A stretch of 64,000 nucleotides of DNA from the NCBI GenBank assembly GCA_963721405.1, contig CAVRJA010000002.1:115580-179579 (forward strand). The letters run 5' to 3'. The stretch comes from an uncultured Acidobacteriota bacterium. GTDB taxonomy: Bacteria; Acidobacteriota; UBA6911. Below the pieces are notes generated by a model that saw only the letters and a list, made by a program, of their open reading frames with translations, was not told where the DNA came from and did not search any database. A program made the translations under genes and the position numbers. Positions 20,163 to 60,100 of the stretch are shown piece by piece (position 1 is the first letter of the stretch; every line of letters starts with the position of its first letter).

Positions 20163-20225
20163 GCCGGCCAGCCGGAGGTCGACACGGTTTTTGCGGTTCC
20201 ATAGCCGAATATAAGGAGCATTCTC

Positions 20226-27291: not shown

Positions 27292-27303
27292 GGAGAAAGG
27301 GAG

Positions 27304-42068: not shown

Positions 42069-42485
42069 GTATTACGCCCCCTGGCAACAAGTTACCGCCC
42101 CGACTTAACGCAACTCGAGCGTCCCTCAATCATACTACATTGCCCTTCCGGAGGCCGCTCCGGAACAGGCCGGGAACAATGCCGGCCTCGCAGTTCGGCC
42201 GGGGATTCGAGAATCAGGACTTCCCCTCAACACACCCGCCTCATATCATACCTTAACGTATTCGTTAGATTAGGTCTTGAGGCAGGAGGTTTGCTGTGTT
42301 TGAATTATCTATGGCGACTCCGGGCTTTCGGACTGCCTGGAGAGTGGTTTCCCGCAAGACTGGCAGGGTCGTGAGAACGACGCGACTGCCCGGGATTCCG
42401 ACGCAACGGGTGAGGGTACAGCATCGCCGGGCACGTCCATCAGCCGGTGCAGGGCCATGCAGCCTGCGACCGCAGGGGTGGTGCG

Positions 42486-44897
42486 GTGGAAAAGATCGGG
42501 AAATACCGGATCTTGGGAAAACTCGGGGAAGGGGGAATGGGGGTTGTCTACAAGGCCCTCGATCCTCTGCTGGAGCGCATCGTGGCGCTCAAGACGATAG
42601 CGGCGCAGCTGGACTCCGAGCCTGACTTGCGCACGAAGTTCTTTCGCGAAGGACGCTCTGCGGCGCACCTGTCCCACAAAAACATCATAACGATCTACGA
42701 CCTCGGCGAAGACAACGGCATGGCGTACCTGGCCATGGAGTTTCTGGATGGAGAGGACCTCAAGGCGAAGGTCAGAAGGAAGGAGATCGGGTCCCTCGAC
42801 AGGAAGCTCCTCATCATGTTCGAGGTCTGTACCGGCCTCGCCCACGCGCACAGCCGGCATGTGATTCACCGCGACATCAAACCCGCGAACGTATTCATCA
42901 CCTCCTCTGGCCAGGTCAAGATCCTCGACTTCGGACTCGCGCGCGTCATGTCCACTGACACTACTCGGACCAGCGCCACGCCAGGCTCGCCGAGCTACAT
43001 GTCCCCGGAGCAAGTGCGCGGAGAAAAGCTCGATCACCGGACGGACATTTTCTCTGCCGGAGCGCTGTTGTACGAGCTCCTGACTTTCCGCAGGCCGTTC
43101 GAGGGTGAGTCGATCGGCTCCACGATCTTCAGCATTCTTCATCACGAGCCGGAGCCGCCTTCGAAGGTCGATCCTGCGCTTCCGCACCAGCTTGACGCCA
43201 TCGTAGCGAAGGCATTGGCAAAGAACCCCGAGGAGAGGTATCAGAGCGTCCAGGAAATGATGTCCGCCCTCAGGGATTGCTCGCCGCAATTGCGATCTTT
43301 GGCACTCCCCGAACCGGGCGGGGACGATGCCGAGACCATTTCGCTGACCGGGATCGACACGGCAAGCGCGACAGTGTCGCTGCCCGGAGATGCTCCCGAT
43401 CTTCTCGGATCGATGCGGATGGAGCCCGCGGCTGCGCGGGTTGAGAGCATTCCAGCCTCAGCGCCTGCTCATCGTCGCAGAAACAGGCTTGCCTACCTCG
43501 TCGCCGCCTGCATGGTTCTGGCTCTGACGGCGGCATCAGTGTGGCGGATTGGCCGGAAAACCCAGGCTTCGGTCACGCGCACGGACAGCGCGGCGGCCCG
43601 GAATTCGCTCCCTGCAGAATCATCGCCGGGTCGCGAGGTTGCCGGCAGGGCGAGCGCCCCACCGGTGCCTGCGGGCGTCACGCGACCGGCGGCGCCTGCG
43701 CAGGGATTGCAGCAGGCGGGCGGCGCCCGGACTCCAGACGCCTCACACGTGGAACCGAACATCCCGGGCACTCCTTCCAGCCGGCAGGGCGCTCCTGCTC
43801 CGCCACGCGGAGAGGCGGAAAGGGCCAATCTCGTCGCGCGCGGGATTCAGCAGACGAAACTGCTTGTCGATCAGGGCAGGTACAAGGAGGCTTCGGACGG
43901 ATTGAAGGAAGTCCTGCGAACAGCGCCGGCAGACCCGGAAGCCCTGCGGCTCGCGGCTCAGCTTGCCGGTTATGCCAAGAAAAACGCCGACGACGCCCGA
44001 GGACAGATGATGGAATCGAAACACAAGGCCGAGGCGGCGGCAGCAGGCCAGTTCGCCGCGAGATCGTTCGAGGGGGCGCAGAACAGGGAGGCGTCGGCGA
44101 GAGCGTCCTACGATGCCGGGCAGTTCGCCGATGCGGCCGCCGGGTTTTTCGAGACCAGCGGCCTTTACCTCAGCGCGGCTCTCGAAGCGGGATCGGAAAA
44201 AGCCGCCAGTGAGAGCCGCGTCAAGCTGTCGGAACAGGAGCGGCAACGGACCCTCCAGCGCCAGCAGGCGGATGTGAGCCGGAGCGTCTACGAGCAGGAG
44301 CGCCTGGACGCGGTCAAGGCGGATGTGGAAACGATGGCTCCCCAAATGTACCAGGATGCGGTCCAGACCGCAGTGGGAGCCCGGGCCAAATGGGATCGCG
44401 AGGATTATGAGGGCTCCAGGGCGGACTTCGAAAAGGCCGCTGAAGCCATGCGTCGGGCGAAAGGGGCGGCGCGGGATGCGGCCAAGAAGCTCGAGCCTCC
44501 TGCCGTTGCCGTCAATCCAAAGCCGGCCTCTCCCGCTGCGCCGGCACCTTCCCAGGCCGACAACAGCCAGCAGGCAATCTCAGCCGTCCTCCAGCAATAT
44601 GCGGCTGCCCTGCAGTCGAAGGATCTGCATGCGCTGCGGAGTATCTGGCCCGGCCTGGGCGGCCAGCAGGAGAGGGCACTGCAGGAAGAATTCAGGAACG
44701 CCCGTGAGATCCAGGTGCGGCTTTCAGGCGTCGAGATCAAGGTCACGGGCGACGACGCGGTCGCAACGGCTCGCCGAACCTACACCCTTTTGACAGTGGA
44801 CGGACAGAAACTACAGACCGAGACCCGCACGGTTGTGGATCTTCGGAGAAACGGCAAGGTATGGCTCATCGACAGTATCCGCTTCGGGCCCATTTAG
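42486..44897 (+). CDS. Transmembrane Ser/Thr protein kinase with an Ala-rich coiled region and a C-terminal NTF2/SnoaL-like domain
   Basis: GEGGMGVVYKA, VALK, HRDIKPAN, DFGLAR, SPEQ. TM helix LAYLVAACMVLALTAASVW. The C-terminus is AISAVLQQYAAALQSKDLHALRSIWPG.... The GTG at 42486 was chosen as the start (GGGGTGG upstream); the ORF is open from GTG 42447. Confidence 0.85.
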   Translation: MEKIGKYRILGKLGEGGMGVVYKALDPLLERIVALKTIAAQLDSEPDLRTKFFREGRSAAHLSHKNIITIYDLGEDNGMAYLAMEFLDGEDLKAKVRRKEIGSLDRKLLIMFEVCTGLAHAHSRHVIHRDIKPANVFITSSGQVKILDFGLARVMSTDTTRTSATPGSPSYMSPEQVRGEKLDHRTDIFSAGALLYELLTFRRPFEGESIGSTIFSILHHEPEPPSKVDPALPHQLDAIVAKALAKNPEERYQSVQEMMSALRDCSPQLRSLALPEPGGDDAETISLTGIDTASATVSLPGDAPDLLGSMRMEPAAARVESIPASAPAHRRRNRLAYLVAACMVLALTAASVWRIGRKTQASVTRTDSAAARNSLPAESSPGREVAGRASAPPVPAGVTRPAAPAQGLQQAGGARTPDASHVEPNIPGTPSSRQGAPAPPRGEAERANLVARGIQQTKLLVDQGRYKEASDGLKEVLRTAPADPEALRLAAQLAGYAKKNADDARGQMMESKHKAEAAAAGQFAARSFEGAQNREASARASYDAGQFADAAAGFFETSGLYLSAALEAGSEKAASESRVKLSEQERQRTLQRQQADVSRSVYEQERLDAVKADVETMAPQMYQDAVQTAVGARAKWDREDYEGSRADFEKAAEAMRRAKGAARDAAKKLEPPAVAVNPKPASPAAPAPSQADNSQQAISAVLQQYAAALQSKDLHALRSIWPGLGGQQERALQEEFRNAREIQVRLSGVEIKVTGDDAVATARRTYTLLTVDGQKLQTETRTVVDLRRNGKVWLIDSIRFGPI

Positions 44898-45124
44898 CCC
44901 GGGTTATTCATCTACGAAACGACCAACCCTGTTCCCGGACGCGGAAGAACGACGCCTGCGTTCGACACCGGCAAGGCGGATGCCCGCGCTCCTGTGCGTC
45001 CGAACTCCCGGCCTTCATCAGTGTCCAAACCCGGTCGATGAATGTTCCCGGCTAGCGACCTGCCCTCGAAATCGCATCATGGAAAATCCAAGCAGTAGTG
45101 AACGCAATCCGCGGAGACTTGCTC

Positions 45125-46447
45125 ATGTCAAAAAGAAGATTCGTGTTGTTTTTGGTGTTGGCCGCCCTTGCCCCGCAGGGCCTTCAGGCTCAGAATTCCG
45201 GCAAGCTCGCCCTGATTTTCAGAAACATCTACGGGCCGAAAGGCTTGGTCGTCGATAGCGAGGCGACGCTGCCCGACGGCTCGACTCACTCGGCCCACTT
45301 CAACAGCGGGTTTCAGTCGGAGTTCACCCAATTCAACCTCGCCATGGCCAGCCAGCTCACGGCCCTCCCCGTTCCTTCGCCCGCTTCGGGCTTCACCTAC
45401 ACCTTCGACACTTCGACCGGCACCTTCAAGCGCTCGACCCAGAGTTTCGGACCTATTCTTGCCGATCGAGCCGAGACCATCGGGCAAGGAAGGTTCGCCG
45501 TCGGGCTGAATTACCAGCAGTTCACATTCAATTCAGTCGAGGGGATCGACCTGTCACGCGTGCCGGCGGTCTTCAAACACGATGATTTCGAGTTGGGTGG
45601 CGGGCGCGCCGACGTTGTCACCACAAACAACTCAATCGAAGCCGGCGTAGCGCAGATCACGCCGTTCCTGACCTTCGGCGTCACCAACCGCATCGATGTT
45701 TCCGTCGCCGTTCCGATCGTCCACACCCGGCTGAGCGTGGTTTCAGACGCGACCATTCAGCGCATCGGGACCGCCGACAATCCGCTGGTGCACTTTTTCC
45801 AGGACCCGTCGGCGCCGAACGGCATTGGCTCGCAACGCGAGTTCGTCGCCGCCGGAAGCGCTTCCGGCCTGGGGGACATCATCGTGCGCATCAAGGGAAC
45901 GGTTCTGAAGCAGGGAGGGGTCGGGCTCGCCCTCGGAACGGACGTGCGCGCTCCCTCGGGAGACGAAAAAAATCTGCTGGGATCCGGCGCCGTCGGGATC
46001 AAGCCATTCATGGCCTTGTCCATGGTCATCAAGCACGTCTCCCCCCACATCAATGCCTCGTATCAGTGGAACGGCCGCAGCGAACTCGCAGGCGACATCA
46101 AGACCGGCGCCAAAGCCGACCTGCCCGATCAAGTGCAGTACGTCGCGGGGGCCGATTTCGGCATCAACCGGAAGATGACGCTGGCGCTCGACTTCTTCGG
46201 GCTGACGGTCCTCCACTCCCCCAGGCTGTTTCCAAACACCTTCACCGCCGTGGGGCCGACGGAAAGCGTGACCTTTCAGGACATCGGCTTCCGGAAGGAT
46301 ACCTTTACGCAGGCATACGGGTCCGCAGGGATCAAGACCAACGTGGGGGGAAGCATCCTCGTCAGCTTTAATTTGCGCTACGGCCTCAATCACGCGGGAC
46401 TTCGCGACAAGGTGACTCCGCTGATCGGCATCGAATACGGATTCTAG
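45125..46447 (+). CDS. Outer-membrane beta-barrel protein, family not recognised
   Basis: Signal peptide FVLFLVLAALAPQGLQAQ, a beta-strand-rich sequence, and the C-terminal IGIEYGF. Confidence 0.7.
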   Translation: MSKRRFVLFLVLAALAPQGLQAQNSGKLALIFRNIYGPKGLVVDSEATLPDGSTHSAHFNSGFQSEFTQFNLAMASQLTALPVPSPASGFTYTFDTSTGTFKRSTQSFGPILADRAETIGQGRFAVGLNYQQFTFNSVEGIDLSRVPAVFKHDDFELGGGRADVVTTNNSIEAGVAQITPFLTFGVTNRIDVSVAVPIVHTRLSVVSDATIQRIGTADNPLVHFFQDPSAPNGIGSQREFVAAGSASGLGDIIVRIKGTVLKQGGVGLALGTDVRAPSGDEKNLLGSGAVGIKPFMALSMVIKHVSPHINASYQWNGRSELAGDIKTGAKADLPDQVQYVAGADFGINRKMTLALDFFGLTVLHSPRLFPNTFTAVGPTESVTFQDIGFRKDTFTQAYGSAGIKTNVGGSILVSFNLRYGLNHAGLRDKVTPLIGIEYGF

Positions 46448-46801
46448 ATCCCGGGCGGCAGTGCGCCTCCGTCCCTGGCGACCGCGCTGTGATCCCGCCG
46501 CACGAGGCACTGTTCCGGAATCAGCAGTCGCGGTCTGTTTGTAGACCGGGCTGAAGCCCGCGGCCACAGGAATGGTTTGCGCCTGGCGGAAGATTCATCG
46601 AGCTTTGGGCGTTAGCCTGCCCGGATTGATCGATCGCTTCCACTGTAACTGCTAATTTTTTTTACATCAGGGCGATTCCATTGAGCAGCAAAGGTTTAGT
46701 TGCTGACTGCTAAATATTTGTACACCCGATCACCGAAGGCCCGTTCGTGACCATTCGTGTTATTTGTTTGTGATGGAAGCATTTATGGAGTTGGCGCGCA
46801 A

Positions 46802-46817
46802 TGGCACGGAAGATGCT
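46802..46817 (+). promoter_or_regulatory. Sigma-54-type -24/-12 promoter candidate
   Basis: TGGCAC-ggaag-ATGCT has canonical GG-N10-GC spacing. It lies 70 nt upstream of ATG 46887 and just downstream of an AT-rich stretch. Confidence 0.4.
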
Positions 46818-46886: not shown

Positions 46887-47888
46887 ATGAGCACTCAACC
46901 AAGAGTTTTGATCGTGGACGACGAAGCAGCCCTGCGCAGGCAACTGATGGTGGGACTGGCCCAGCATGGGTACGAAGTGGACGAGTGTGAGGAAGGGCTT
47001 TCCGCGCTCACGAAGATCAAGGCGGCTGAAGCGAAGCAGAAACCGTTCTCCTGTGTGATTCTGGATGTCCGGCTCCCGGATATAGACGGAATAAAGATCC
47101 TATCGGTCATCCGAGCCGCCTACGCCGATCTCCCGGTGGTGGTCATTACGGGGTTTGGCACGCGGGACATGATGGACACGGTCCAGAATCAAGGCGGCAG
47201 CGTATACCTCGACAAGCCGTTTGGCATGGACACCCTGGTATCGCTGCTCGACCGCTTTGAGGAAAAGGCGGAGGGGAGGGCAAAGCCCAGGCCTGACGCC
47301 GAACCGCAGACGCCGACAAGCGCGCTGGTATTCGTCCGCGGGGAGAAGGAGGCGGATCTGTCCGAGATTTACTCCAAGCTCTGTTTTGCCGATGGAGTGT
47401 GTTATTGTGACCCGGTGCTCGGCGAATGGGACCTGGTTCTGCTCGTGCAGGCCCCGAACCGCAAGAGCATCGAACAGATCGTTCATCGTCACCTGAGATC
47501 CGTGAAGGACGTGGAAGCCTTCGAAATCCACTATTGCGAGAAGCCGGTGATTTCGAAAGAGCTCGAGGAATTCATCCATGATTATGAGAAAGTGCAGGCC
47601 ATGGAAAATGCGGATGGCGGGACGATGGACGGGCGGAACGTGCGCATGCTCACTTCGTATGCCATTCTCGACGTGGATCCTGCCAGGCTGTCGAGCCTGT
47701 ACATGAAGCTCAAGTTTACGGACAACGTCGTTCACTGCGACGTGACCGACGGCGGCAATCAGATTGTCCTGCTCTTGCAGGGGATCTCGGCACAGGAGAT
47801 CCAGTCGGCCGTTCGAAACGAGATCCGCATGATTCCTGGGGTGCTCCGCATCAAGCAGCTCAGCGCCCTGAATTTCTCAACCAAATAA
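46887..47888 (+). CDS. Response regulator with a REC domain followed by two Lrp/AsnC-type RAM (ligand-binding) domains and no DNA-binding domain
   Basis: REC: VLIVDDEAALR...ILDVRLPDIDG...VVVITGFG...YLDKPF. Then two units of about 75 aa: ALVFVRGEKEADLSEIYSKLCFADGVCYCDPVLGEWDLVLLVQAPN...VKDVEAFEIHY and YAILDVDPARLSSLYMKLKFTDNVVHCDVTDGGNQIVLLLQGIS...IPGVLRIKQL. Confidence 0.75.
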   Translation: MSTQPRVLIVDDEAALRRQLMVGLAQHGYEVDECEEGLSALTKIKAAEAKQKPFSCVILDVRLPDIDGIKILSVIRAAYADLPVVVITGFGTRDMMDTVQNQGGSVYLDKPFGMDTLVSLLDRFEEKAEGRAKPRPDAEPQTPTSALVFVRGEKEADLSEIYSKLCFADGVCYCDPVLGEWDLVLLVQAPNRKSIEQIVHRHLRSVKDVEAFEIHYCEKPVISKELEEFIHDYEKVQAMENADGGTMDGRNVRMLTSYAILDVDPARLSSLYMKLKFTDNVVHCDVTDGGNQIVLLLQGISAQEIQSAVRNEIRMIPGVLRIKQLSALNFSTK

Positions 47889-47906: not shown

Positions 47907-48461
47907 ATGAATCAGCCAGAACGTGAATCCAGCAGAGTAGCGCCAGCCGCATTCGCCCGAATGCTGTGGCGGCATCGCGGTGAGCCTGGGATGCTCATTC
48001 CGCTTCTGCAGGCGGCCCAGGACAGCTATGGTTTTGTTCCCCCGCTTGCCATCGAGCAGATCTCGGACGCAACCGGAATTCCCACGGCGGAGATATACGG
48101 CGTCATCACGTTCTACAAGCAGTTCCGCTTGAAGCCTCTCGGCCGGCACATCATCCGGCAGTGCAAAGGGACGGCTTGCCATGTGGTCGGCGCGGAGACG
48201 ATCGGCCAGGTGCTGGCAGACGAGCTTCATGCCGCTCCCGACGAAACGACGGAGGACGGGCTCTTTACGTACCTGGTGGTGGCTTGTTTGGGATGCTGCA
48301 GTCTGGCGCCCGCCCTGATGATCGATGATCAGACTTACGGCCGCCTGACCCCACAGAAGGTGCGCAAGCTGATTCGCCAGTATCGCCGGGATGCCGCCAG
48401 GGCTGCCGAACGGCCGCCCTCGAAAGCGGCGGCGTCCATCGGAGCCGTCCCGGAGGCTTAA
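47907..48461 (+). CDS. NuoE/HoxE-like [2Fe-2S] subunit
   Basis: LIPLLQAAQDSYGFVP...EIYGVITFYKQF...CKGTACHVVG...VACLGCCSLAPALMID. Confidence 0.9.
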   Translation: MNQPERESSRVAPAAFARMLWRHRGEPGMLIPLLQAAQDSYGFVPPLAIEQISDATGIPTAEIYGVITFYKQFRLKPLGRHIIRQCKGTACHVVGAETIGQVLADELHAAPDETTEDGLFTYLVVACLGCCSLAPALMIDDQTYGRLTPQKVRKLIRQYRRDAARAAERPPSKAAASIGAVPEA

Positions 48462-48473
48462 GCGGAGGGTTTT

Positions 48474-50222
48474 ATGCAGGAAGTGTTGGTCGGACTCGGT
48501 TCGTGCGGCCTCGCCGCCGGCGGCCTGAAGGTGTACCAGCGGTTCGCGGAGCTGCTCGAACCCGACAAGAGCCGAGCCATCCTCAAGAAAACCGGCTGCA
48601 TCGGCATGTGCTACGCCGAAGTCCTCGTCGAAGTGAGAGACGGGAGCGGCGGCAGCACACTCTACGGCAATATTTCTCCCGAAAGAGTCGGCCGCATCGT
48701 CGAAGATCACCTCAAGAAGGGGAAGGTGGTCTCCGAGTGGGTGACGGACGCGGCGGTGTCGACGGCCAGGCAAAGGCGTGTGGTGCTGCGCAACTGCGGC
48801 ATCATCGACCCGGACAGTCTCGACGAGTATCTTGCGCGTGAGGGCTATCAGGCGCTGCAGAAGGTGCTCTCGGAGATGACCCCTGCGGATGTCGTCGCAG
48901 TTATCGCCGGCTCGGGTCTCAGGGGCCGGGGTGGCGCCGGTTTCCCCACAGGCACGAAATGGCGTTTGGCCGCCGCCGCAAAGGACGCGCACAAGTATGT
49001 CATCTGCAACGCCGACGAAGGGGATCCGGGCGCATTCATGGACCGGAGCGTCCTGGAGGGGGACCCGCATTCGGTGCTCGAGGGCATGGCGATCGCAGCA
49101 TATGCGATCGGCGCGGACACCGGCTATATCTATGTCAGGGCCGAGTACCCCGAAGCGGTGAAGCGGCTCCGACACTCCATCGCGCAGGCGACGGCGCGCG
49201 GCTACCTCGGCAGCAACATCCTGGGGAAGGGGTTCCATTTCAACGTAAAGCTCAAGGAAGGCGCCGGCGCGTTCGTCTGCGGCGAGGAAACCGCGCTGAT
49301 CGCCTCGGTGGAGGGCCGGCGCGGCATGCCGAAGGTGCGGCCCCCGTTCCCCGTCGAATCCGGCCTCTGGGGCCATCCCACATGCATCAACAACGTCGAA
49401 ACGCTCGCCAATGTCGCCTGGATCATCCTGCACGGCGCCGAGGCGTTCAACGCCTGCGGCACCGCCGGTTCCAAGGGGACCAAGGTGTTTGCCCTCGCCG
49501 GCAAGGTCAAGAGAGGCGGCCTGGTCGAAGTCCCCATGGGGATGACCATCAACGAGGTCATCTACGAGATCGGCGGCGGCACACTGCTGGGAGGAGAGTT
49601 TAAGGCGGTGCAGATGGGAGGCCCATCGGGCGGCTGCATCCCGGCCTCACTGGGCAACACACCGGTCGATTATGAGCAGATCACCGCCACCGGCGCCATC
49701 ATGGGATCAGGCGGCATGGTGGTCATGGACGAGACCACCTGCATGGTGGACGTGGCGCGGTTCTTCCTCTCATTCACCCAGAACGAGTCGTGCGGGAAAT
49801 GCACTTTCTGCCGTGTCGGAACAAAACGGATGCTGGAAATCCTCGAGCGCATCTGCACCGGCAAAGGGAAGCCGGAAGATGTCGCCATGCTTTCCGAGCT
49901 TGGAGAACAGATCAAATCGAGTTCCCTGTGCGGACTGGGGCAGACTGCGCCCAATCCCGTGCTGACGACGCTCCGCTACTTTCTGCACGAGTACGACGCG
50001 CACATCAAGGACAAGAAGTGCCCCGCCAAATCATGCCTCACCCTCGTCGAGTTCTCCATCATCGCCGATGCCTGTTCCGGCTGCGGGCTCTGCCTCGCGG
50101 CATGCGATGTGGGCGCGATCACCGGCGAGAAGAAAGCGGCACACCGGATTGACGCCCTGAAGTGCATCCGCTGCGGCAAGTGCATCACGGTCTGCAACCA
50201 GGGCGCGATTGAAAAGCGATAA
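48474..50222 (+). CDS. NuoF/HydB-like FMN/NADH-binding subunit with an N-terminal thioredoxin-like [2Fe-2S] domain and a C-terminal 2x[4Fe-4S] ferredoxin domain
   Basis: RBS GGAGGG. GRGGAGFPTGTKW, NADEGDPGAF, ESCGKCTFCRVG, then CSGCGLCLAAC...CIRCGKCITVC. Confidence 0.9.
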   Translation: MQEVLVGLGSCGLAAGGLKVYQRFAELLEPDKSRAILKKTGCIGMCYAEVLVEVRDGSGGSTLYGNISPERVGRIVEDHLKKGKVVSEWVTDAAVSTARQRRVVLRNCGIIDPDSLDEYLAREGYQALQKVLSEMTPADVVAVIAGSGLRGRGGAGFPTGTKWRLAAAAKDAHKYVICNADEGDPGAFMDRSVLEGDPHSVLEGMAIAAYAIGADTGYIYVRAEYPEAVKRLRHSIAQATARGYLGSNILGKGFHFNVKLKEGAGAFVCGEETALIASVEGRRGMPKVRPPFPVESGLWGHPTCINNVETLANVAWIILHGAEAFNACGTAGSKGTKVFALAGKVKRGGLVEVPMGMTINEVIYEIGGGTLLGGEFKAVQMGGPSGGCIPASLGNTPVDYEQITATGAIMGSGGMVVMDETTCMVDVARFFLSFTQNESCGKCTFCRVGTKRMLEILERICTGKGKPEDVAMLSELGEQIKSSSLCGLGQTAPNPVLTTLRYFLHEYDAHIKDKKCPAKSCLTLVEFSIIADACSGCGLCLAACDVGAITGEKKAAHRIDALKCIRCGKCITVCNQGAIEKR

Positions 50223-50232
50223 AGGAATCGAG

Positions 50233-53200
50233 ATGTCCACGCAGGCAGCCACCGATCGAACATCCCTCTCCGTCGAACTTCTCATCAACGGGAGAAGCGT
50301 ATCCGCGAAACCCGGCCAGACCATCCTCGAGGTGGTCCGCGATCAGGATCTCGATGAGATTCCCACTCTCTGCTACGATCCCAAGCTCGAGCCTTACGGT
50401 TCCTGCTTCCTGTGCGTCGTGGAGGTGAAGGGCGCGCCGCGCCTTCTTCCGGCTTGCGTCACCAGAATCAGGGACGGCATGGAGGTCACGACACGGAATG
50501 AAAGAGTCGTCAACGCGCGCAAGACGGCGCTCGAACTCCTGTTGTCGGATCACTACGCCGACTGTGTTTGTCCCGGCCAGCGCTCCTGTCCGGCACACGT
50601 GGACATCCAGGGGTATCTGAGCCTGGCGAGGCTCGGCTATTACAAGGAAGCGCTCGATTTGGTCAAGGAGCGCAACCCGCTCCCGGTCGTCTGCGGCCGG
50701 GTCTGCGTGCGAAAGTGCGAGGTGTCCTGTCTTCGTAACAACGTGGACGAGCCGGTCGGGATCAACTTCGTCAAGCGCTTCATCTCGGAAAACGCGGAGA
50801 CGGTGACGGAGAAACCGAAGGATGCGCCGTCTACCGGAAAACGCGTGGCCGTCATCGGGGGAGGTCCCGCCGGGCTCACCTGCGCCAATTACCTCGCCCT
50901 GCGCGGGCACGAGGTCACGATCTACGAGTCGCTGCCCCGGCTCGGGGGCATGCTGCGATACGGCATCCCGGAGTACAGGCTCCCCCGCACGGAATTGGAT
51001 GAAGAGATCCGCGGGATCCTCGACCTGGGAGTCAGGGTGCGGACGTCGACGGCCCTGGGCAGGGATTTCACGATCGAGCAGCTGGTCGAGCAGGAGAAAT
51101 ACGACTCGGTGTTTGTCGCCCTCGGAGCTCCTCTAGGGAAAAAGATGGGGATCAAGGGGGAGGACGAAGTGGAGGGCGCCAGCCCGGCGCTCGATTTTCT
51201 GCGCGATTGCGATCTCTACGGCCCGCCGGCCCTGAAGGGCAAAGTGGCCGTCGTAGGGGGCGGAAACTCCGCGATCGATGCGGCTCGCACCGCGCTCCGC
51301 TGCGGGGCGGAGGAAGTGACGATCCTGTATCGCCGCACCCGCAAGGAAATGCCCGCCCACCACGAAGAAGTCGACGCCGCTGAAATGGAAGGCGTCAGGC
51401 TCGAACTGCTTGTCGCCCCGCTCGAAATCCTGGCGGAAAACGGTCGCCTCAGGGGCCTCCGCTGCCAGCGCATGGAGCTTGGCGAGCCCGACTCGAGCGG
51501 TCGGCGCAAACCGGTGCCGATCGAGGGTGCGGTCACGGACTTCGCCTGCGACTACCTGTTCGCCGCCATCGGCCAGGACACCGATCTCAGGGTGCTGCAG
51601 GACGAGCCCGAGCAGCTGCGCCCCAGGTTGAGCCGCTGGTCCACACTCGAGTCCGACCCGGCGACCATGGTCACCAGCGTGAAGGGGGTGTTCGCGGGCG
51701 GAGACGTCGTGCTGGGCCCGTCCGCCGTGATCGACGCCATCGCCCATGGCCGCACTGCAGCCGAAGCCATCGACGGCTTCCTGCGGACAGGGGAGGCGCA
51801 GCCGCCCCCGCCGGAGTTTAAAAGCCGGCGTGATTTCTTCGGCGACATCCCGGAATGGGCGTTCGAAGAAGTGGAGCGCAGAAAGCGCAGTGTCATGCCC
51901 GAACGCGAGGCATCGGAGCGCGTGCATGACTTTTGCCAGGTTGAAACCGGACTGGATGAATTCCAAACAAAGGACGAGGCGTTCCGTTGCATGGAGTGCG
52001 GTTGCAAGTCGGTATTCGGATGCGACCTCAAGCGATATGCGGCCGAGTACAACGTCGACATCGCCCGTTTTGCCGGGGAAGTGCGGCGGCATCGGGTCGA
52101 CCACAGCCACCCGCTGATCACCCTCGACCCGAACAAGTGCATCCTCTGCGGACGGTGCATCCGGACATGCGCAGACATCGTCGGCCTGGCGGTTCTCGGC
52201 TTCGTGGGCCGCGGATTTGCCACGACGGTGAGGCCGGCACTCGGCAAGCCGCTTGCGGAAAGCGCCTGCATCTCCTGCGGCGCCTGCGTGGAGAGCTGCC
52301 CGACCGGCGCGCTCGAAGCCAGGCTCCCCTGCGGCCGGCAGGGCCCCTGGAAGACCCGCCAAGTACCTTCGGTCTGCTCCTTCTGCTCCGTCGGTTGCGA
52401 GATGGATCTCAATGTGGTGGCGGACGGTCTTCTCTGGGCAACCTCCCCAGGGAGCTTCATTCCGGCGCGAGGCGAGCTTTGCGTGAAGGGCCGGTTCGGC
52501 ACCGGGCTCGTTCAAGGGACGGACCGGCTGAACAAGCCACTTGTCAGGAAGGGCGGGCAACTGGTCGAAGTCGAATGGGATGAGGCAATCCAGACAGGCG
52601 TCCGGCTACTCCGGCAGCAACAGGAAAAGCACGGCCCTGATTCCGTCGCCGTGGTCGCGGCGCCGCGCATGACGCTGGAGGATGCGCTGCTGTTGAGCCA
52701 CCTGGCCACGACCGCGCTCGGCGCCGGCCAGGTAGGAAGCTTCGGGCAGAACCGGCGGGGCGGGCCCCGACACGACCTCGACAGCATCCTCGGCGAAACC
52801 GCGTCCACCTGCACGCAGGATGACATCGGCAAGGCCGACCTGATTCTCATAGCGGGCGCCGACCCGAGCGTAAGCCATCCGGTTCTCGGAATGGCGATCC
52901 GGCGCGCGGCGAAGCGGGGTGCCGAAATCATCTCCGTCAACTCGAGTCAAATCGACCTGGTGCGGCCCGGGGACCTCTGGCTCGATGCCCGGCGCGGCAC
53001 GGCGGGTATCATCTTCGCATCCGTGCTGAACCACCTTTTGAAAAGCGGCAGTGGCAACACTAAGGCCGTTCCACAGGGGGATCTCGAAGCCCTTAGAGTT
53101 TCCGTCGCCCCTGCCACGCTGGCCGAGGCAGCCGGCCAGGCCGGCGTTTCCGCAGCCAAAATCGAGGCCTGTGCCGAAAAAATAACGGCCGCGAAGCGGG

Positions 53201-53907
53201 TCGTTGCCGTCTACGACCTGGACGACACTCTCGAAAGGGCCACGGACGATCTCAAGGCTCTGGCGCAAGTCCTGATCCTCACCGGTCATATCGGGAAGGA
53301 GGGTGAGGGCCTGCTGCTCCTGCAGTCGGACTGCAACAGCGAAGGGGCACGATTGGCGGGCATAAACAACCGCCTGAGGGTGGATCAGATTCGAGGGGCC
53401 CTGGTGATGTTTGAAAACCCGTATGGTGACTACCGCGCGGTCCAAGAACTCGCGAATGTTGCGTCCCTCGTGGTGATCGATCACTTCCTCACGGAAACAG
53501 CGCGCGCGGCCGACGTGGTCCTTCCGGCGGCCACGATCGCCGAGTCGGAGGGAACGTTGGTGAGCTTCGACGGGAAATTCGGCTGCGTCAACAAGGCCGG
53601 AATACCGGCATCGGGCCTGTCGACGGCCGACGTCCTGGCCCGGATCTGCCGGGAGTTGGGGCACCCCGTCGAATCCACGGATCCTGCCCGCATACGGAGC
53701 GGCTTCGCCTCGTCGCTGGGAATCCCGGCGCCCGAAATCGAGCGGGCGCGCAGCATGAGTCTGCCCCTGCCGCGCAAACCCGCGGCGGCACTTGCGCTGG
53801 CTCCGGTTCGACTCGACGCGGCCTCCTCCGTGGCCAACGTTTTCCCCTACGCGTCCCTGGATGCCATTCTTGACAGAAAGCTCGAAACGTTGAGCCTTGT
53901 GAGATAA
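50233..53907 (+). CDS. 1224-aa fusion: [2Fe-2S] ferredoxin domain, GltD-like NAD(P)H/FAD oxidoreductase module, NuoG-type [4Fe-4S] domains, then a cofactor-less-looking molybdopterin-oxidoreductase (MopB) domain
   Basis: The N-terminus is IPTLCYDPKLEPYGSCFLCVVEV. GltD part: CPAHVDIQGY...PLPVVCGRVCVRKCEVSC, VAVIGGGPAGLTCANYL...GGMLRYGIPEYRLP, VAVVGGGNSAIDAAR. NuoG part: CILCGRCIRTC, CISCGACVESCPTGAL, CSFCSVGCEMD, LCVKGRFG. Confidence 0.85.
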   Translation: MSTQAATDRTSLSVELLINGRSVSAKPGQTILEVVRDQDLDEIPTLCYDPKLEPYGSCFLCVVEVKGAPRLLPACVTRIRDGMEVTTRNERVVNARKTALELLLSDHYADCVCPGQRSCPAHVDIQGYLSLARLGYYKEALDLVKERNPLPVVCGRVCVRKCEVSCLRNNVDEPVGINFVKRFISENAETVTEKPKDAPSTGKRVAVIGGGPAGLTCANYLALRGHEVTIYESLPRLGGMLRYGIPEYRLPRTELDEEIRGILDLGVRVRTSTALGRDFTIEQLVEQEKYDSVFVALGAPLGKKMGIKGEDEVEGASPALDFLRDCDLYGPPALKGKVAVVGGGNSAIDAARTALRCGAEEVTILYRRTRKEMPAHHEEVDAAEMEGVRLELLVAPLEILAENGRLRGLRCQRMELGEPDSSGRRKPVPIEGAVTDFACDYLFAAIGQDTDLRVLQDEPEQLRPRLSRWSTLESDPATMVTSVKGVFAGGDVVLGPSAVIDAIAHGRTAAEAIDGFLRTGEAQPPPPEFKSRRDFFGDIPEWAFEEVERRKRSVMPEREASERVHDFCQVETGLDEFQTKDEAFRCMECGCKSVFGCDLKRYAAEYNVDIARFAGEVRRHRVDHSHPLITLDPNKCILCGRCIRTCADIVGLAVLGFVGRGFATTVRPALGKPLAESACISCGACVESCPTGALEARLPCGRQGPWKTRQVPSVCSFCSVGCEMDLNVVADGLLWATSPGSFIPARGELCVKGRFGTGLVQGTDRLNKPLVRKGGQLVEVEWDEAIQTGVRLLRQQQEKHGPDSVAVVAAPRMTLEDALLLSHLATTALGAGQVGSFGQNRRGGPRHDLDSILGETASTCTQDDIGKADLILIAGADPSVSHPVLGMAIRRAAKRGAEIISVNSSQIDLVRPGDLWLDARRGTAGIIFASVLNHLLKSGSGNTKAVPQGDLEALRVSVAPATLAEAAGQAGVSAAKIEACAEKITAAKRVVAVYDLDDTLERATDDLKALAQVLILTGHIGKEGEGLLLLQSDCNSEGARLAGINNRLRVDQIRGALVMFENPYGDYRAVQELANVASLVVIDHFLTETARAADVVLPAATIAESEGTLVSFDGKFGCVNKAGIPASGLSTADVLARICRELGHPVESTDPARIRSGFASSLGIPAPEIERARSMSLPLPRKPAAALALAPVRLDAASSVANVFPYASLDAILDRKLETLSLVR

Positions 53908-53964: not shown

Positions 53965-55425
53965 ATGGACCGGCTATTCGTCGAAGAAGAGCTGTTCGGC
54001 AGGCTGGGGTGGCTGATCAAAATCCGCTGGGCCTTCATCGCCGGGCTCATCATCACGATCGCGACGTGTCGAGTTTTCCGGGTCGATCTGCCCTACCTCA
54101 GGCTTGTGGCGGTGGGCGGCTTTATCCTCGCTTACAACGTGGCGCTGTGCGTCCGCCACATGCATATCGGGCGGGCCGGGAGCCCCGATCCCGGCAAGGG
54201 CCAGTTCGAAGCCAATCTGCAGATTTGGGCGGACTTCCTTTCGCTCACCCTCCTCATCCATTACTCGGGAGGCGTCGAAAATCCCTTCGTCTTCCTGTAC
54301 ATCCTGCACATCATCGTCGGCAGCATCATCTTGCGGCGTCACCAGGTGTGGTTCGAGGGACTCGTAGCGTACCTGCTATTCCTGGGCATGGTCATCCTCG
54401 AATACACCGAGGTCATTCCCCACTACGCGGTCAAATACCTGTTTGATCACCCGAGGTACCAAAACCCCTACTTCATTGCTGCCGTGACGATCACGCTTCT
54501 CATTACGTTCCTGTCGACGATTTACATGAGTTCCACGATCGTACACAGCCAGCGCACCCGAGAGTACGAACTCATGCAGGCACGGAGCATGCTCCAGAAG
54601 AAATCCGGCGACCTGGAGAAGGTAAACCGGGAGTTGCGCGAAAAGCAGCAGCAGCTGGTGCAGTCGGAGAAACTGGCATCCCTGGGCCGGCTCTCCGCCG
54701 GCATGGCTCACGAGATCAACAACCCGGTCCAGTTTATCCAGGGAAACATGCGCATCCTGAGCGAGGCCACGGCCGATATCCTGCCGGTCCTCGACCGCCA
54801 CGCGGAGGCTAATCCCGACTTCAAAATTGCGCGCCTCAACTACTCCTTTTTCCGGCAGCACATCAAGACGCTTCTCGACGACATGTCGAACGGCACAGTC
54901 CGGATTGCAGACATCGTGCGCGACCTTAAGAAATTCGCGCGCGCGGAGGAGGGGCGGTTCGACGAATCGGTGGACGTCAACGAGGCGGTCCGCGCCAGCC
55001 TCCGGCTCGTGCACAACAAGGTCAAGCGCCACAATGTCATTACCGAACTCGCCCCGGACCTCCCGCAAATCAAGGGAAACGCCAACAAGATCGAGCAGGT
55101 ACTGGTAGCCAATCTCATCAATGCCGCCGAAGCAATCGCCGACCGGACGGACGGCAGTATCAAGGTGGAGACCTCATCCGACCCGGGGGGAGCGAGCGTG
55201 TGCGTGCGCATAACGGACAACGGGCCCGGCATGACGGAGGAGGTCCGGCAGCGGCTCTTCGACCCTTTCTTCACGACGAAGCAGCGAAGCGGAGGCATGG
55301 GGCTGGGCCTTTCCGTCGCATATGGCATAATCAAGGATCATCAGGGATGGGTTGACGTGGACACGAAGCTGGGCGCGGGGACGACCCTGCAATATCACTT
55401 CCCGGTGGACAGGAGCGAGGGATGA
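53965..55425 (+). CDS. Membrane sensor histidine kinase
   Basis: About six N-terminal TM helices, a coiled coil, H-box SAGMAHEINNPV, and N/G boxes (NLINAAEA, DNGPGM, GMGLGLS). Confidence 0.85.
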   Translation: MDRLFVEEELFGRLGWLIKIRWAFIAGLIITIATCRVFRVDLPYLRLVAVGGFILAYNVALCVRHMHIGRAGSPDPGKGQFEANLQIWADFLSLTLLIHYSGGVENPFVFLYILHIIVGSIILRRHQVWFEGLVAYLLFLGMVILEYTEVIPHYAVKYLFDHPRYQNPYFIAAVTITLLITFLSTIYMSSTIVHSQRTREYELMQARSMLQKKSGDLEKVNRELREKQQQLVQSEKLASLGRLSAGMAHEINNPVQFIQGNMRILSEATADILPVLDRHAEANPDFKIARLNYSFFRQHIKTLLDDMSNGTVRIADIVRDLKKFARAEEGRFDESVDVNEAVRASLRLVHNKVKRHNVITELAPDLPQIKGNANKIEQVLVANLINAAEAIADRTDGSIKVETSSDPGGASVCVRITDNGPGMTEEVRQRLFDPFFTTKQRSGGMGLGLSVAYGIIKDHQGWVDVDTKLGAGTTLQYHFPVDRSEG

Positions 55426-56837
55426 GTCGGGTGCTGGTTATTGACGACGACGTGGCGGTCCTCAACTACTTCATGGTCCTGCTTGCCCAGACGCAGCGCT
55501 ATGAAGTCAGCGTCCTGAGCGACAGCACGCAAGCGTTCGAGACCATCGACTCCGGGAGATTCGACGCCATTCTGCTCGATATGGACATGCCGGTAGTCCA
55601 CGGCCGCGACGTGCTCAAGTACGTGAAGGAAAAGTATCCCGAAATCGAGGTGATCGTCATTACGGGAGTCGAGGACGTGCCGCTGGCCGTCGAATCGATG
55701 AAGGCCGGGGCATACGACTATCTCTGTAAGCCGGTCGACCAGAACCGGCTCCTGCACAGTCTGGAGCTGGCTCTCGAGAGAACACAGCTCCGCGTGGAAA
55801 TTTCCAAACTCCGGGACCAGGTCAGCCTTGCCGGCCTGCGCCACAAAGATGCTTTTCGAGCCATCCTCACCCAGAACAAGAACTTCCTCCGCGTGCTTCA
55901 GCGAGTCGACCAGATCGCCGAGAGCGAAAACTTCGTCCTCATCTGGGGCGAAAGCGGCACGGGCAAGGAGCTCGTGGCCCGGGCGATCCACCGGATCAGC
56001 CGGCGGCGTGACCGTCCGTTCATCGCTGTGAACGCCGGCACCTTCGCCTCGGAACTCTTCACCTCCGAGTTCTTCGGCCACGAGAAAGGAGCGTTCACCG
56101 GCGCAGTCCGAAGCAAAGCCGGCTTTTTCGAGGAAGCCGACGGGGGCACGCTCCTCCTTGACGAGATCGGCGAGCTCGAGTTGCCCGTGCAGTCGAAGCT
56201 GCTCCGCGTGCTGCAGGAAGGGGAGTATTTTCGGGTCGGCTCGACGGAAAAACGCGGCGCCGATGTCAGGATCATCGCGGCTACGAACCGGGACCTTGCC
56301 GACGAGATCGAAAAGGGGCGGTTCCGGCGGGACCTGTACTACCGGCTCAACATCTGTTCGGTGTATTTGCCGCCTCTGCGGGACCGTGAGGGGGATGTCG
56401 AACTGCTGGCCGATTGCTTCCTCGAAAAGCACAATCGCCTGAACGGGAGAGCAATCTCGCTGATCGAGAGGGATGTGATCGACATTCTCGAGATGTACGA
56501 CTACCCGGGGAACGTGCGGGAATTGGAAAACATCATTGCGGAGGCCGTAGTCGTGGAGACCGGGCTGACGCTCACGCGCCGTTCCCTGCCCCGTTATATC
56601 CTGAGCGCGGTTGCCAAGTCCCGCGTGTCGTCGGTACCCGCGGGAGAGCGCAGGACACTCGCGGAAATGGAAGCCGAACACATTCGCCATATGCTCGAAC
56701 TCACGGACGGGAATCGCACAGTGACCGCGGAAATCCTCGGCATCTCGCGCGTGAACCTGCTCGCCAAAATCAAACGCTACGGCATCGACATCAAGCCCTC
56801 GTCCGGCATCCCCGCCACGAACAGCAACCTCGACTGA
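55422..56837 (+). CDS. Sigma-54-dependent response regulator (NtrC family)
   Basis: ATGA overlap with the kinase gene. REC domain, GESGTGKE, GAFTGA, and the C-terminal HTH GNRTVTAEILGISRVNLLAKIKRYG. Confidence 0.9.
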   Translation: MSRVLVIDDDVAVLNYFMVLLAQTQRYEVSVLSDSTQAFETIDSGRFDAILLDMDMPVVHGRDVLKYVKEKYPEIEVIVITGVEDVPLAVESMKAGAYDYLCKPVDQNRLLHSLELALERTQLRVEISKLRDQVSLAGLRHKDAFRAILTQNKNFLRVLQRVDQIAESENFVLIWGESGTGKELVARAIHRISRRRDRPFIAVNAGTFASELFTSEFFGHEKGAFTGAVRSKAGFFEEADGGTLLLDEIGELELPVQSKLLRVLQEGEYFRVGSTEKRGADVRIIAATNRDLADEIEKGRFRRDLYYRLNICSVYLPPLRDREGDVELLADCFLEKHNRLNGRAISLIERDVIDILEMYDYPGNVRELENIIAEAVVVETGLTLTRRSLPRYILSAVAKSRVSSVPAGERRTLAEMEAEHIRHMLELTDGNRTVTAEILGISRVNLLAKIKRYGIDIKPSSGIPATNSNLD

Positions 56838-57115: not shown

Positions 57116-60100
57116 ATGATGCTCGAAAGTCACCGTCTATCTCGAGCTGACATGAGCTACGATCGAGCGTTTGAGAGTGTCGATTTGTCTCTCCCGGAAT
57201 CGGAATCTCAGCGGGAGTGTGCGGGCAACATTGCCGCGCAGCGGTTCATCGGCGTCGACATCGGGGCCGAAACGCTCAAGGCGGTGGAACTGGAGCGCCG
57301 CGACGGCGCGCTGACCTGCGTCCGCCGGCAGTTGCTCGACCACGCAAAAAATCCAGGCCCGCTCCTCCTGCAGCTCCTTGCCGACTGGGACTGGTCCGCC
57401 GTTCAGGGCGCGGCCGTAATCGGAAGGCTCAGCCGCCAGGTGAATCTCCCAAGAGTGCCGGTAAAACAAGCTCTGGCCCACGGCTATCGCTTCCACTTCC
57501 AGGACCGGCCGGGGACGGTGGTGTCGCTCGGAAGCCACGGCTTTTCGGTCCTGGAACTGCGCGAAAGCGGTCTCGAGGTGCTGCGCGAGAACAGCCGCTG
57601 CGCCCAGGGCACCGGCAATTTTTTGCGGCAGCTGGTGGAGCGGTTCTCCCTGACGGTCGAGGAGGCGTCCGAACTCTGCGCCGACGTGGATGACCCGGCG
57701 CAGCTGTCAGGCAGGTGCCCCGTGATCCTGAAAACGGACATGACGCACCTGGCCAACAAGGGCGAGGGACGCGCCAGGATTCTGGCGGGTTTGTTCGATG
57801 CCGTCTGCCAGAACGTCTTCACCCTGATAAAGCCTACGGTTACCCCTTCCGACGTCTTGCTGGCCGGCGGCGTAAGCAGGTCGCGGCGAGTGCAGCGCGT
57901 GTTCCAGGAGTTCCTCGACCGCAACGGCATGAAGCTGCTGCGTCTACCGGGAGACGAGGCGATCTTTCTTGAAGCGACCGGCGCTGCGGTCATGGCAGCG
58001 GCGAGCGCGGCAGGAGTCATCCCCCTGGATCAGGTATTGGGCGCGACGGCGGCGGTCAAGATGGATGTAGTTCCCCCCTTGTCAGCCTCCCTGCCGCGGG
58101 TCAAGAGGCTTGATTCCTATCCCCTGGCCCGGCGCAACGGACAACCGCTGGCGCTGATCCTCGGTTTCGACATCGGATCGACGGGCTCCAAACTCGTTGC
58201 CATGGAGCCGTCTTCCTGCAAGATCGCCTGGGAAGGGTACCGGCGGACGACCGGCGATCCCGTTGGTGCCGCTCAAGCCCTCTTGAGCCAGTACATGGAA
58301 GAGCATGGCGCCGAGGATCGGATTGTGGGTTTCGGCGTGACCGGAAGCGGGCGGGAGATTGTCGGCTCGCTGCTGGTCACCTGCTACGGCGAAAGCAGTG
58401 TGTTCATCCTGAACGAAATCGCGGCCCATGCAGAGGGAGCCGTCCACTACGATCAGCGGGTGGATACGATCTTCGAAATTGGCGGACAGGACGCCAAGTA
58501 TATCCGCCTGGAAGATCGCCGGATCATCGACGCCGCCATGAACGAGGCGTGCAGCGCCGGGACCGGATCTTTCATCGAGGAGCAGGGACAGAGGTTCGCC
58601 GGCATCCGTGATGTCGTCCATTTGGGTCAAGAAGCGCTGTGCACGGACCACGGAGTCTCGCTCGGGCAGCACTGTTCGGTCTTCATGGCGGAGATCATCG
58701 GGGAAGCGGTTTCTGCAGGCGTGAGCCGGAATGCGATCATCGCCGGATTATACGATTCCATCATCCAGAACTACCTCAACCGCGTGAAAGGAAACCGCTC
58801 CGTCGGCAAATTCATCTTTTGCCAGGGCATGCCGTTCGCCGCCGACGCGCTCGCCGCGGCCGTAGCGCGCCAGACGGGCAGCGAGGTGATCGTGCCCCCG
58901 AATCCGGGGACAGTGGGCGCTCTCGGGATCGCTCTCCTGGCACGGCGCGGCCTCACGATCTGCGACAATACCTCGTTGGATCCCAGGCGTTTTCAATGCG
59001 CGCGCATCGAAGGGAAGGAAACCTTCGTATGCAAGTCGACCTCGGGCTGCGGCGGCTCGGGCAATCTCTGCCGCATCGACACCATACGCACGACGGTCGA
59101 CTCCAGGCGCCAGCATTTTTCCTGGGGCGGAGCCTGCTCACTTTACGACAAGGGCGCCAGAAAAAGGAAGCTTCCAGACCGTTCGCCGGACCCGTTCCGG
59201 GAGCGCGAAGACCTGGGGCGCGAGATGATCAAACCCTTCCTGGAACGCCGCGGGGCTCGGACCATTTCCATTACGGACGAGTTTATCCTCAGAAACCTGT
59301 TCCCGTTCTTCGTCACGTTTCTGCACGGACTGGGGCTCGATCCCCTGCTGATCGGGGGCGCCGATCACACCGCGTTGAAACGAGGGATCGAAGAGGCGAA
59401 CACGCCTTTCTGCGCGCCGATGCAGCTGTATCATGGGATCGCGGGCAACATGGCGGATGAGAAGCCCGATTACATCTTCCTCCCGATGCTGCGCGGGACG
59501 CCGCGCATCAACGGAGAAAGGGACGCGGTCACCTGCCCGATCGTTCAAGGCAGCAGCGACGTCATCCGCTGGAATCTCCGCCGGAGGTACAGCGGCAGAA
59601 TCCTGTCGCCCGTGATCGATTTCCAGAGCAGCAATCTCCGCTCCCCGGAATTCATGGCCTGCTGCGAGAAGATCGCCGCGGATCTCGGCATTCAAGGCGA
59701 CCTGTGGCGCGCGGCGCACGGAATCGCCGCGGAGGTCCAGCACAGGTTCGACAGGGAATGCCGCGAGATCGGCCGCCGGGCCCTCGATTTTTGCTCCGAA
59801 CGCGACCTCCCGGCCATCGTCGTCCTGGGGCGGCCCTACACGATCTTCAACAAGGTATTGAACTCGAATGTGCCGGCGATTTTGCGCGAGCAAGGCATGC
59901 TCGCCATCCCCTTGGACTGCTATCCGGTCAGCGACGAAGTGCCCATGTTCGATGGCATGTACTGGGGCTACGGCCAGCGGATCCTGCGCGCCGCCCACCA
60001 GATCAGGCGGGCGCGGGACGTGTATGGCGTTTATTGCAGCAATTATTCCTGCGGCCCGGACAGCTTCAACCTGCATTTCTGCGGTTACATCATGGAGGGG

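Follow-up and report, generated by a model that had tools for sequence, protein, structure and literature searches.

In the 64,000-nucleotide stretch analyzed here (the window), which comes from an uncultured Acidobacteriota bacterium, positions 47907-53907 carry three adjacent genes that very probably encode a flavin-based bifurcating NADH/NADPH/ferredoxin transhydrogenase of the Stn/NfnABC (Nfn-Bfu) type, as judged from comparison with solved complexes. The best solved-structure matches for all three proteins are NfnABC of C. saccharolyticus (9BOV/9BP5; E = 3e-253 for the large subunit, 7e-246 for the NuoF-like subunit, and 5e-50 for the NuoE-like subunit), followed by StnABC of S. ovata (8OH5/8OH9; E = 3e-218, 2e-241, and 3e-47, respectively), and the archaeal Nfn-Bfu (9N5U) ranks third for each subunit. 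Because the same complexes come out best for all subunits and both the architecture and the cofactor ligands are kept, the locus is placed in a family that has already been described. Members of this family, characterized biochemically in 2020 and 2022 and by cryo-electron microscopy in 2023 and 2025, keep the NADH, NADPH, and ferredoxin pools of anaerobes in balance; they couple NADPH oxidation tightly to the reduction of both ferredoxin and NAD+ and form a tetramer of heterotrimers. The initial annotation of this DNA, made from the sequence without database searches, had proposed a transhydrogenase of this kind with a cofactor-less MopB domain, and the structure matches and ligands of the Stn/Nfn complexes bear it out.

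Relationship to the solved StnABC and NfnABC complexes

All three open reading frames are intact on the + strand and are separated by gaps of 12 and 10 nt, in agreement with the earlier description of adjacent NuoE-like and NuoF-like genes and a 1224-residue fusion. For the large subunit, the TTG at 50209 listed as the start by the open reading frame program is too early, and the ATG at 50233, seven bases after an AGGA ribosome-binding site, is preferred; this start is favored because close homologues have about 1190-1270 residues and several have exactly 1224. The gene order (NuoE-like, NuoF-like, GltD/NuoG-like) is that of S. ovata SOV_1c07740-07760 (PMC7483475).

The Pfam search that the initial annotation had suggested found the expected families across the large subunit, with Fer2_4 (residues 13-89), Fer4_20 (114-189), and Pyr_redox_2 (204-506) in the N-terminal half, and Fer4_Nqo3 (627-694), Molybdop_Fe4S4 (710-760), and Molybdopterin (765-1121) in the C-terminal half. 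In this order, a GltD-type module indeed lies between a [2Fe-2S] domain and the [4Fe-4S]/MopB domains, as had been read from the sequence. The NuoE-like protein matches 2Fe-2S_thioredx (E=2e-47), and the NuoF-like protein contains Complex1_51K, SLBB, NADH_4Fe-4S, and a C-terminal 2x[4Fe-4S] domain; its N-terminal thioredoxin-like domain of about 95 residues has no Pfam match, yet it aligns with the N-terminal domain of NfnB/StnB. The E-values of these matches rule out chance, and the sequence facts given in the initial annotation are correct.

Its reading of the domain order as unusual, and of the retained NuoG/MopB domain as absent from described members, has to be given up. S. ovata StnC (1172 aa) consists of a [2Fe-2S] domain (1-101), a GltD-like domain (102-565), and a catalytically inactive FdhF-like domain (683-1172) (PMC10482914), and in NfnA of C. 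saccharolyticus (130 kDa), an N-terminal domain is followed by NfnL-like and Fdh/NuoG-like domains (PMC11829005). The large subunits of these solved complexes, with 1178 aa in C. saccharolyticus and 1172 aa in S. ovata, share the domain order of the 1224-residue protein, which is thus the canonical, structurally solved StnC/NfnA architecture. The alignment to 9BOV_A is nearly full-length (residues 16-1142 against 6-1103). Identity to the C. saccharolyticus subunits is about 46% for the large (over aligned stretches), 63% for the NuoF-like, and 54% for the NuoE-like subunit, and the large subunit is about 44% identical to S. ovata StnC, likewise over aligned stretches; both large-subunit values fall within the range of 37-49% used in the literature to list Stn homologues.

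The NuoF-like subunit, placed by ranking PDB bit scores, is closest to 9BOV_B (820), 8OH5_B (806), and 9N5U_B (774), ahead of the HydB structures (734-597) and the non-bifurcating FdsB and Nqo1 (at most 445). Its alignment to the first three covers residues 3-580 and keeps every Cys and His, and comparison with solved BfuB-type subunits shows that it carries every Bfu-specific addition. For the NuoE-like subunit, the top PDB matches are 9BOV_C, 8OH5_A, and 9N5U_C.

Among the characterized relatives, C. saccharolyticus NfnABC (9BP5/9BOV; Li et al., Commun Biol 2025, PMC11829005) has the same three subunits, the same domain order, and all of the same Fe-S ligands, including the three Cys plus Lys of cluster A7, the Zn linker site, and the three Cys with a conserved Glu in the NfnB N-terminal domain. 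It differs in that the second Cys of the H-x3-C motif is shifted in the protein studied here (C-x-C-x5-C instead of C-x3-C-x3-C), the equivalent of its C114 is Ile, a Cys (Cys154) is added, and five residues are inserted at the former molybdenum-ligand loop; in addition, the source here is a mesophilic Acidobacteriota-type organism, with an operon in a dedicated two-component/sigma-54 neighborhood. S. ovata StnABC (Kremp et al. 2020, PMC7483475; Kumar et al. 2023, PMC10482914) shares the gene order, the inactive FdhF-like C-terminal domain, and the long form with both dead-end clusters, and its K170 and R239 correspond to K181 and R249. While the S. ovata genes adjoin the Wood-Ljungdahl gene cluster, the genes described here are flanked by regulators, with no acetogenesis context in the 64-kb window. 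The archaeal enzymes, namely the Thermococcus-type NfnABC (9N5U; PMC12018979, PMC9304861) and T. litoralis NsoABC, have the same BfuBC core and NfnL-like module, but the archaeal large subunit, at 963 aa, is smaller by some 200 residues; the cysteines for one [4Fe-4S] cluster are missing from it, and its Fdh-like domain is only partial, whereas the 1224-residue protein is complete in all these respects.

More distant systems share parts of this design. The HydABC electron-bifurcating [FeFe]- and [NiFe]-hydrogenases (7P5H, 8A6T, 7Q4V, 7T2R) possess a homologous NuoF-/NuoE-like bifurcating core, but neither an H-cluster nor a [NiFe] module is present here, and the third substrate module is a GltD-like NADPH site. 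NfnAB/NfnSL (5JCA, 4YLF) has a homologous GltD-like module binding flavin adenine dinucleotide (FAD) and NADPH (NfnL/NfnB; E ~1e-84) and the same overall reaction. This two-subunit enzyme, which includes a small FNR-like partner (NfnS/NfnA), is nevertheless unrelated: its FAD is the site of bifurcation, and its proximal cluster is ligated by a Glu. In the present system, this ligand is Lys, bifurcation is assigned to the flavin mononucleotide (FMN) site of the NuoF-like subunit, and no NfnS-like gene is present, so that the locus was not assigned to NfnAB/NfnSL.

The large-subunit family comprises at least 8000 proteins at E<=1e-50, and the 120 homologues listed have essentially one common domain set. 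The closest relatives, at 83% identity, come from a Terriglobia metagenome-assembled genome (MAG) and from Acidobacteriota MAGs, followed by Methylomirabilales (NC10), Holophagales, 'Deltaproteobacteria', and Myxococcales MAGs at 55-66%, and Melioribacteraceae/Ignavibacteriota at about 40%.

Cofactor ligands and the proposed electron path

The Fe-S ligands were mapped onto the 1224-residue protein from alignments to reference structures, and their conservation was followed in a clade alignment of 29 homologues, down to 44% identity. All 28 Fe-S cysteines of the large subunit, together with H107, K181, and R249, are conserved relative to the references, and the ligands for one [2Fe-2S] and six [4Fe-4S] clusters, corresponding to the bacterial long form, are kept, with one (C113) shifted by two positions. 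The [2Fe-2S] cluster is represented by C47, C58, C61, and C75, and the A6 [4Fe-4S] cluster is probably bound by H107, C111, C113, and C166. C119, C158, C162, and K181 are equivalent to the A7 ligands C108, C147, C151, and K170 of C. saccharolyticus (PMC11829005) and are invariant in the 29 homologues; the family-specific lysine ligand K170, equivalent to K181, is reported to be required for activity and to occur without exception in StnC sequences, and R239, whose replacement likewise costs activity in S. ovata, is represented by R249. Further [4Fe-4S] ligand sets are C586/C589/C591/C597, C636/C639/C642/C646, and C679/C682/C685/C689, and the cluster of the Molybdop_Fe4S4 domain has C715, C718, C722, and C750.

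On the nucleotide side, the motif GGGNSAIDAART...YRR is conserved with NADPH-using homologues, and Y366-R367-R368, which follow the second Rossmann motif, are invariant across the clade alignment, suggesting that the GltD-like module uses NADPH. Retained in the NuoF-like subunit are the FMN/NADH site, the B1 [4Fe-4S] cluster (C440/C443/C446/C486), the Zn linker (H510, C516, C521), and the cysteines of the C-terminal 2x[4Fe-4S] domain (C534-544, C564-574); its N-terminal domain has three Cys (C11, C42, C46) and a conserved E49, which presumably serves as the fourth metal ligand. In the NuoE-like subunit, the candidate [2Fe-2S] ligands are C86, C91, C127, and C130 or C131, and the cysteines of its thioredoxin-like C-terminal domain are kept.

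Given that the cofactor ligands needed for it are present, a mechanism can be borrowed from the solved homologues. NADPH would reduce a non-bifurcating FAD in the GltD/NfnL-like module of the large subunit, from which electrons would pass singly via the Lys-ligated [4Fe-4S] cluster (C119, C158, C162, K181) and then along the Fe-S chain, reaching the FMN in the NuoF-like subunit. This FMN, with the adjacent B1 [4Fe-4S] cluster and the NuoE-like [2Fe-2S] site, would split two electron pairs, one going downhill to NAD+ and the other uphill to ferredoxin by way of the C-terminal 2x[4Fe-4S] domain, in an overall transhydrogenase reaction that would be reversible. The Fdh/MopB-like domain, without a pterin site, would be an oligomerization scaffold with a dead-end Fe-S branch. 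A role in tetramer assembly is proposed because of the S. ovata mutants, in which deletion of StnC's FdhF-like domain, or mutation of its cluster cysteines, blocks tetramer assembly (PMC10482914).

It should be noted that several features do not sit easily with this picture. Identity between the large subunit and its characterized counterparts reaches only about 45%, and none of the latter comes from the Acidobacteriota-type clade. The second Cys after H107 lies two residues early, at C113 (50569-50571) instead of 115; the two positions covary in the clade alignment, with either C113 and G115 or G113 and C115. The equivalent of S. ovata C114 is Ile125 (50605-50607), and the S. ovata C114A mutant lost 50% of its activity, although Val or Ile is reported at this position in some homologues in the S. 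ovata paper. An additional Cys154 (50692-50694) is invariant in the 29 aligned homologues and is Ile in the solved Firmicutes enzymes. These departures from the characterized enzymes, all near the FAD-proximal clusters, are small. Moreover, the metal of the NuoF-like N-terminal domain cannot be read from sequence. The initial annotation had given this subunit an N-terminal thioredoxin-like [2Fe-2S] domain and a C-terminal 2x[4Fe-4S] domain; both domains are found, but the '[2Fe-2S]' of the former cannot be asserted because the site was modeled as [2Fe-2S] in S. ovata but contains Zn with three-Cys/one-Glu ligation in C. saccharolyticus (PMC11829005).

The Fdh/MopB-like domain and alternative functions

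The C-terminal half of the large subunit invites a different annotation, namely a genuine NAD(P)+-linked formate dehydrogenase with an FdsABG-like or FdhF-like catalytic subunit. It matches Pfam Molybdopterin and Molybdop_Fe4S4, aligns to formate dehydrogenase structures with E ~1e-40, and matches the NCBIfam Fdh-alpha model, and homologues carry names such as 'formate dehydrogenase major subunit', 'Formate dehydrogenase H', and 'molybdopterin-dependent oxidoreductase'. The Fdh-alpha score, however, is 243 against a cut-off of 666, and the residues that would hold the metal are gone. R841 aligns with the selenocysteine of the F420-dependent 9T1S_L and with the Cys of 7BKB_D, and R842 aligns with the adjacent His, so that two arginines replace the Sec/Cys-His pair; no Cys occupies the R841 column in any of the 29 homologues. 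The cap domain Molydop_binding (PF01568) was not found in the 1224-residue protein, for which 25 of 29 Pfam families were shown, and is absent from the precomputed domain lists of the 120 listed homologues. In agreement with a lost cap domain, the alignments to formate dehydrogenases stop about 80 residues before the C-terminus, while those enzymes run on for about 200 residues. Furthermore, the nearest solved homologues contain no pterin, and their corresponding domain is described as catalytically inactive. Thus, on the ligand and cap-domain evidence, a formate dehydrogenase of the MopB (FdhF/FdsA) type was rejected as very improbable, and the names that assign this large-subunit family to formate dehydrogenases or molybdopterin oxidoreductases are misleading for a cofactor-less domain. 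The initial annotation had already noted the missing Cys or Sec at the molybdenum-ligand position and the missing molybdopterin cap, both of which hold, and the bona fide formate dehydrogenase with intact Mo ligands that it had named as evidence to the contrary is not what R841/R842 and the capless C-terminus represent.

Even less credible, to the point of being negligible, is the view that the three genes supply a respiratory complex I with its NuoEFG input module. The NCBIfam models for NuoE, NuoF, and NuoG all match, and the NuoE equivalog NF005722 scores just above its cut-off, but NuoF and NuoG score below theirs. No other nuo genes are adjacent, the neighbors being regulators, and neither the Bfu-type N- and C-terminal extra domains of the NuoF-like subunit nor the GltD insertion in the large subunit fits such a module; complex I was rejected on the gene context and the NCBIfam cut-offs. 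A more serious alternative, albeit still an unlikely one, is that the protein family is the same but the enzyme of this lineage does not bifurcate, acting either as a plain NADPH:acceptor oxidoreductase, comparable to the sulfur or polysulfide reductase activity initially ascribed to Nso, or as a donor of electrons to a partner through the Fdh-like dead-end branch. The original description of a close homologue, T. litoralis NsoABC, presented it as an NADPH-dependent sulfur oxidoreductase, which speaks against a transhydrogenase; the clade differs near the FAD-proximal cluster (I125, C154, C113); and the sensor kinase, the sigma-54 control, and the RAM-domain protein are absent from three Firmicutes-labelled MAG loci (L038, L044, L047). 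Nevertheless, every element of the bifurcating core is intact, no further catalytic subunit is conserved in the cluster, and the Nso-type enzymes have since been reinterpreted, with T. sibiricus Nfn-Bfu shown to bifurcate (PMC9304861). A bifurcating Stn/NfnABC transhydrogenase therefore remains by far the preferred assignment.

Regulatory neighborhood and surrounding genes

The enzyme genes form part of a six-gene cluster, being preceded by a gene for a RAM-domain response regulator and followed by genes for a histidine kinase and a sigma-54 activator (Table 1). The neighborhoods of 80 related loci were compared; in most of those with enough flanking DNA, the regulators are arranged around the enzyme genes in this way, down to 40% large-subunit identity. 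The six-gene arrangement occurs in loci labelled Acidobacteriota, Methylomirabilales, Deltaproteobacteria, and Melioribacteraceae/Ignavibacteriota, and in one further locus (L001), but in the Methylomirabilales loci the downstream regulator matches the receiver part only. The three Firmicutes-labelled MAG loci recovered lack these regulatory neighbors, as noted above.

Table 1. Features of the cluster and its upstream region (positions in the window; aa, amino acids)
Feature	Position	Strand	Basis and remarks
Putative upstream activator site 1, TGCTAATTTTTTTTACA	46650-46666	+	17-nt imperfect palindrome TGYWAR-N6-KWACA; -152 from the -24 element
Putative upstream activator site 2, TGCTAAATATTTGTACA	46708-46724	+	17-nt imperfect palindrome; -94 from the -24 element; 58 nt from site 1
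Predicted sigma-54 type -24/-12 promoter element, TGGCACggaagATGCT	46802-46817	+	One mismatch to TGGCAC-N5-TTGCW
Response regulator with two RAM/AsnC-type domains, no DNA-binding domain	46887-47888	+	333 aa; Pfam Response_reg and AsnC_trans_reg; first operon gene; conserved neighbor
NuoE-like subunit (StnA / NfnC / BfuC)	47907-48461	+	184 aa; Pfam PF01257
NuoF-like subunit, probable bifurcating core (StnB / NfnB / BfuB)	48474-50222	+	582 aa
Large subunit (StnC / NfnA / BfuA)	50233-53907	+	1224 aa; [2Fe-2S], GltD/NfnL-like FAD/NADPH module, Fe-S domains, Fdh-like domain
GltD/NfnL-like module	50551-51792	+	Residues ~107-520; A6/A7 [4Fe-4S] ligands, R249, FAD motif GGGPAG, NADPH motif GGGNSAIDAART...YRR
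Cofactor-less Fdh/MopB-like domain	52360-53595	+	Molybdop_Fe4S4 710-760 and Molybdopterin 765-1121
Codons R841-R842 at the position of the Sec/Cys-His molybdenum-ligand pair	52753-52758	+	Alignment to formate dehydrogenases
Membrane histidine kinase (PilS-like sensor with six transmembrane segments, HisKA, HATPase_c)	53965-55425	+	Pfam; conserved neighbor in 25 related loci examined
NtrC-type sigma-54-dependent response regulator (receiver, Sigma54_activat, HTH_8)	55422-56837	+	Pfam; conserved neighbor; 4-nt overlap of its start with the kinase stop

The protein encoded first in the cluster belongs to a narrow family, made up of about 210 clusters, in which almost every listed member has 331-337 residues. 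The TTG at 46764 given by the open reading frame program is again too early, and the true start, ATG 46887, is fixed by homologues that almost all have 333-334 residues. In the AF2 model (pLDDT 77), the receiver is followed by two beta-alpha-beta-beta-alpha-beta domains. These C-terminal domains gave no informative match, the Foldseek hits being dominated by the receiver and the PDB sequence search finding the receiver only.

Sequence conservation suggests that the operon is probably driven by a sigma-54 promoter, which the histidine kinase and NtrC-type regulator encoded next to the enzyme genes would activate. The predicted element TGGCACggaagATGCT begins 85 nt upstream of ATG 46887, and about 17 of 23 related loci have an equivalent -24/-12 element a short distance upstream of their first gene, with agreement at 9-11 of the 11 specified positions. 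A scan of the window alone with two mismatches allowed was not significant (24 sites found against 28 expected), and the site at 46802 is credible solely for its position and its conservation across loci. Upstream of it, the two palindromes TGCTAATTTTTTTTACA and TGCTAAATATTTGTACA, detected as a direct repeat, are putative activator sites. The motif of the first recurs at roughly this offset in those other Acidobacteriota and 'delta' loci that contain it, Melioribacteraceae loci have it at -137 or -133, and both palindromes keep nearly the same offsets across phyla. The density of the palindrome pattern is 8.5 per kb in the 230 nt upstream and 0.035 per kb elsewhere in the same loci, for a pattern defined from these sequences. 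That the pattern was counted in the very sequences that defined it weighs against this interpretation, as does the fact that the promoter and activator sites are assigned entirely from conservation. With this reservation, the NtrC-type regulator encoded downstream is the likely activator of the promoter at 46802.

From these observations, a broader proposal can be drawn, although it is doubtful at present: Nfn-Bfu in MAGs of Acidobacteriota, Methylomirabilales, Deltaproteobacteria, and Ignavibacteriota may be part of an undescribed dedicated signaling unit, in which a PilS-like kinase and an NtrC-type activator would act on a sigma-54 promoter via two 17-nt palindromes, and the co-transcribed RAM-domain regulator would be a phosphorylation- and metabolite-dependent modulator of the enzyme or its expression. 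A limited literature search found nothing relevant on sigma-54 or two-component control of Nfn-Bfu operons, or on NfnABC of Acidobacteriota.

Other genes in the window were also surveyed. A second pair of a histidine kinase (DUF4118, HisKA, HATPase) and a sigma-54-dependent response regulator is encoded at 17382-20233 on the - strand. Just upstream of the promoter region, 42447-46447 encodes an 816-residue Ser/Thr protein kinase-like protein with a long low-complexity tail and then a 449-residue, apparently secreted protein without a Pfam match. Downstream of the cluster, 57116-61561 encodes a 1481-residue fusion of two ATPase modules of the BcrAD/BadFG type (acyl-CoA dehydratase activase); it was considered as a consumer of ferredoxin and rejected because it is a neighbor in none of the 80 related loci. 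At 23012-29057, an 833-residue multiheme cytochrome c with c7, c3, and MtrC-like domains is followed by open reading frames of 602, 265, and 319 residues without Pfam matches. The window also encodes a giant CarboxypepD_reg/OMP barrel protein and peptidases, which, like the multiheme cytochrome, fit the Acidobacteriota origin to which the closest homologues of the large subunit point.

As an enzyme, the locus adds little, extending a well-characterized family to Acidobacteriota-type soil and sediment bacteria. Databases nonetheless still mislabel its large subunit as a formate dehydrogenase or molybdopterin oxidoreductase, and in metabolic reconstructions of anaerobic or facultative Acidobacteriota, such a locus indicates ferredoxin-linked balancing of NADH and NADPH and is not to be counted as formate oxidation. 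The only new point of the locus lies outside 47907-53907, in the conserved sigma-54/two-component context with a RAM-domain response regulator, which offers a modest lead on how such enzymes are regulated. If the proposed signaling unit is real, it would represent the first case of a regulatory circuit dedicated to a bifurcating transhydrogenase and could indicate a role other than the constitutive redox balancing of acetogens.

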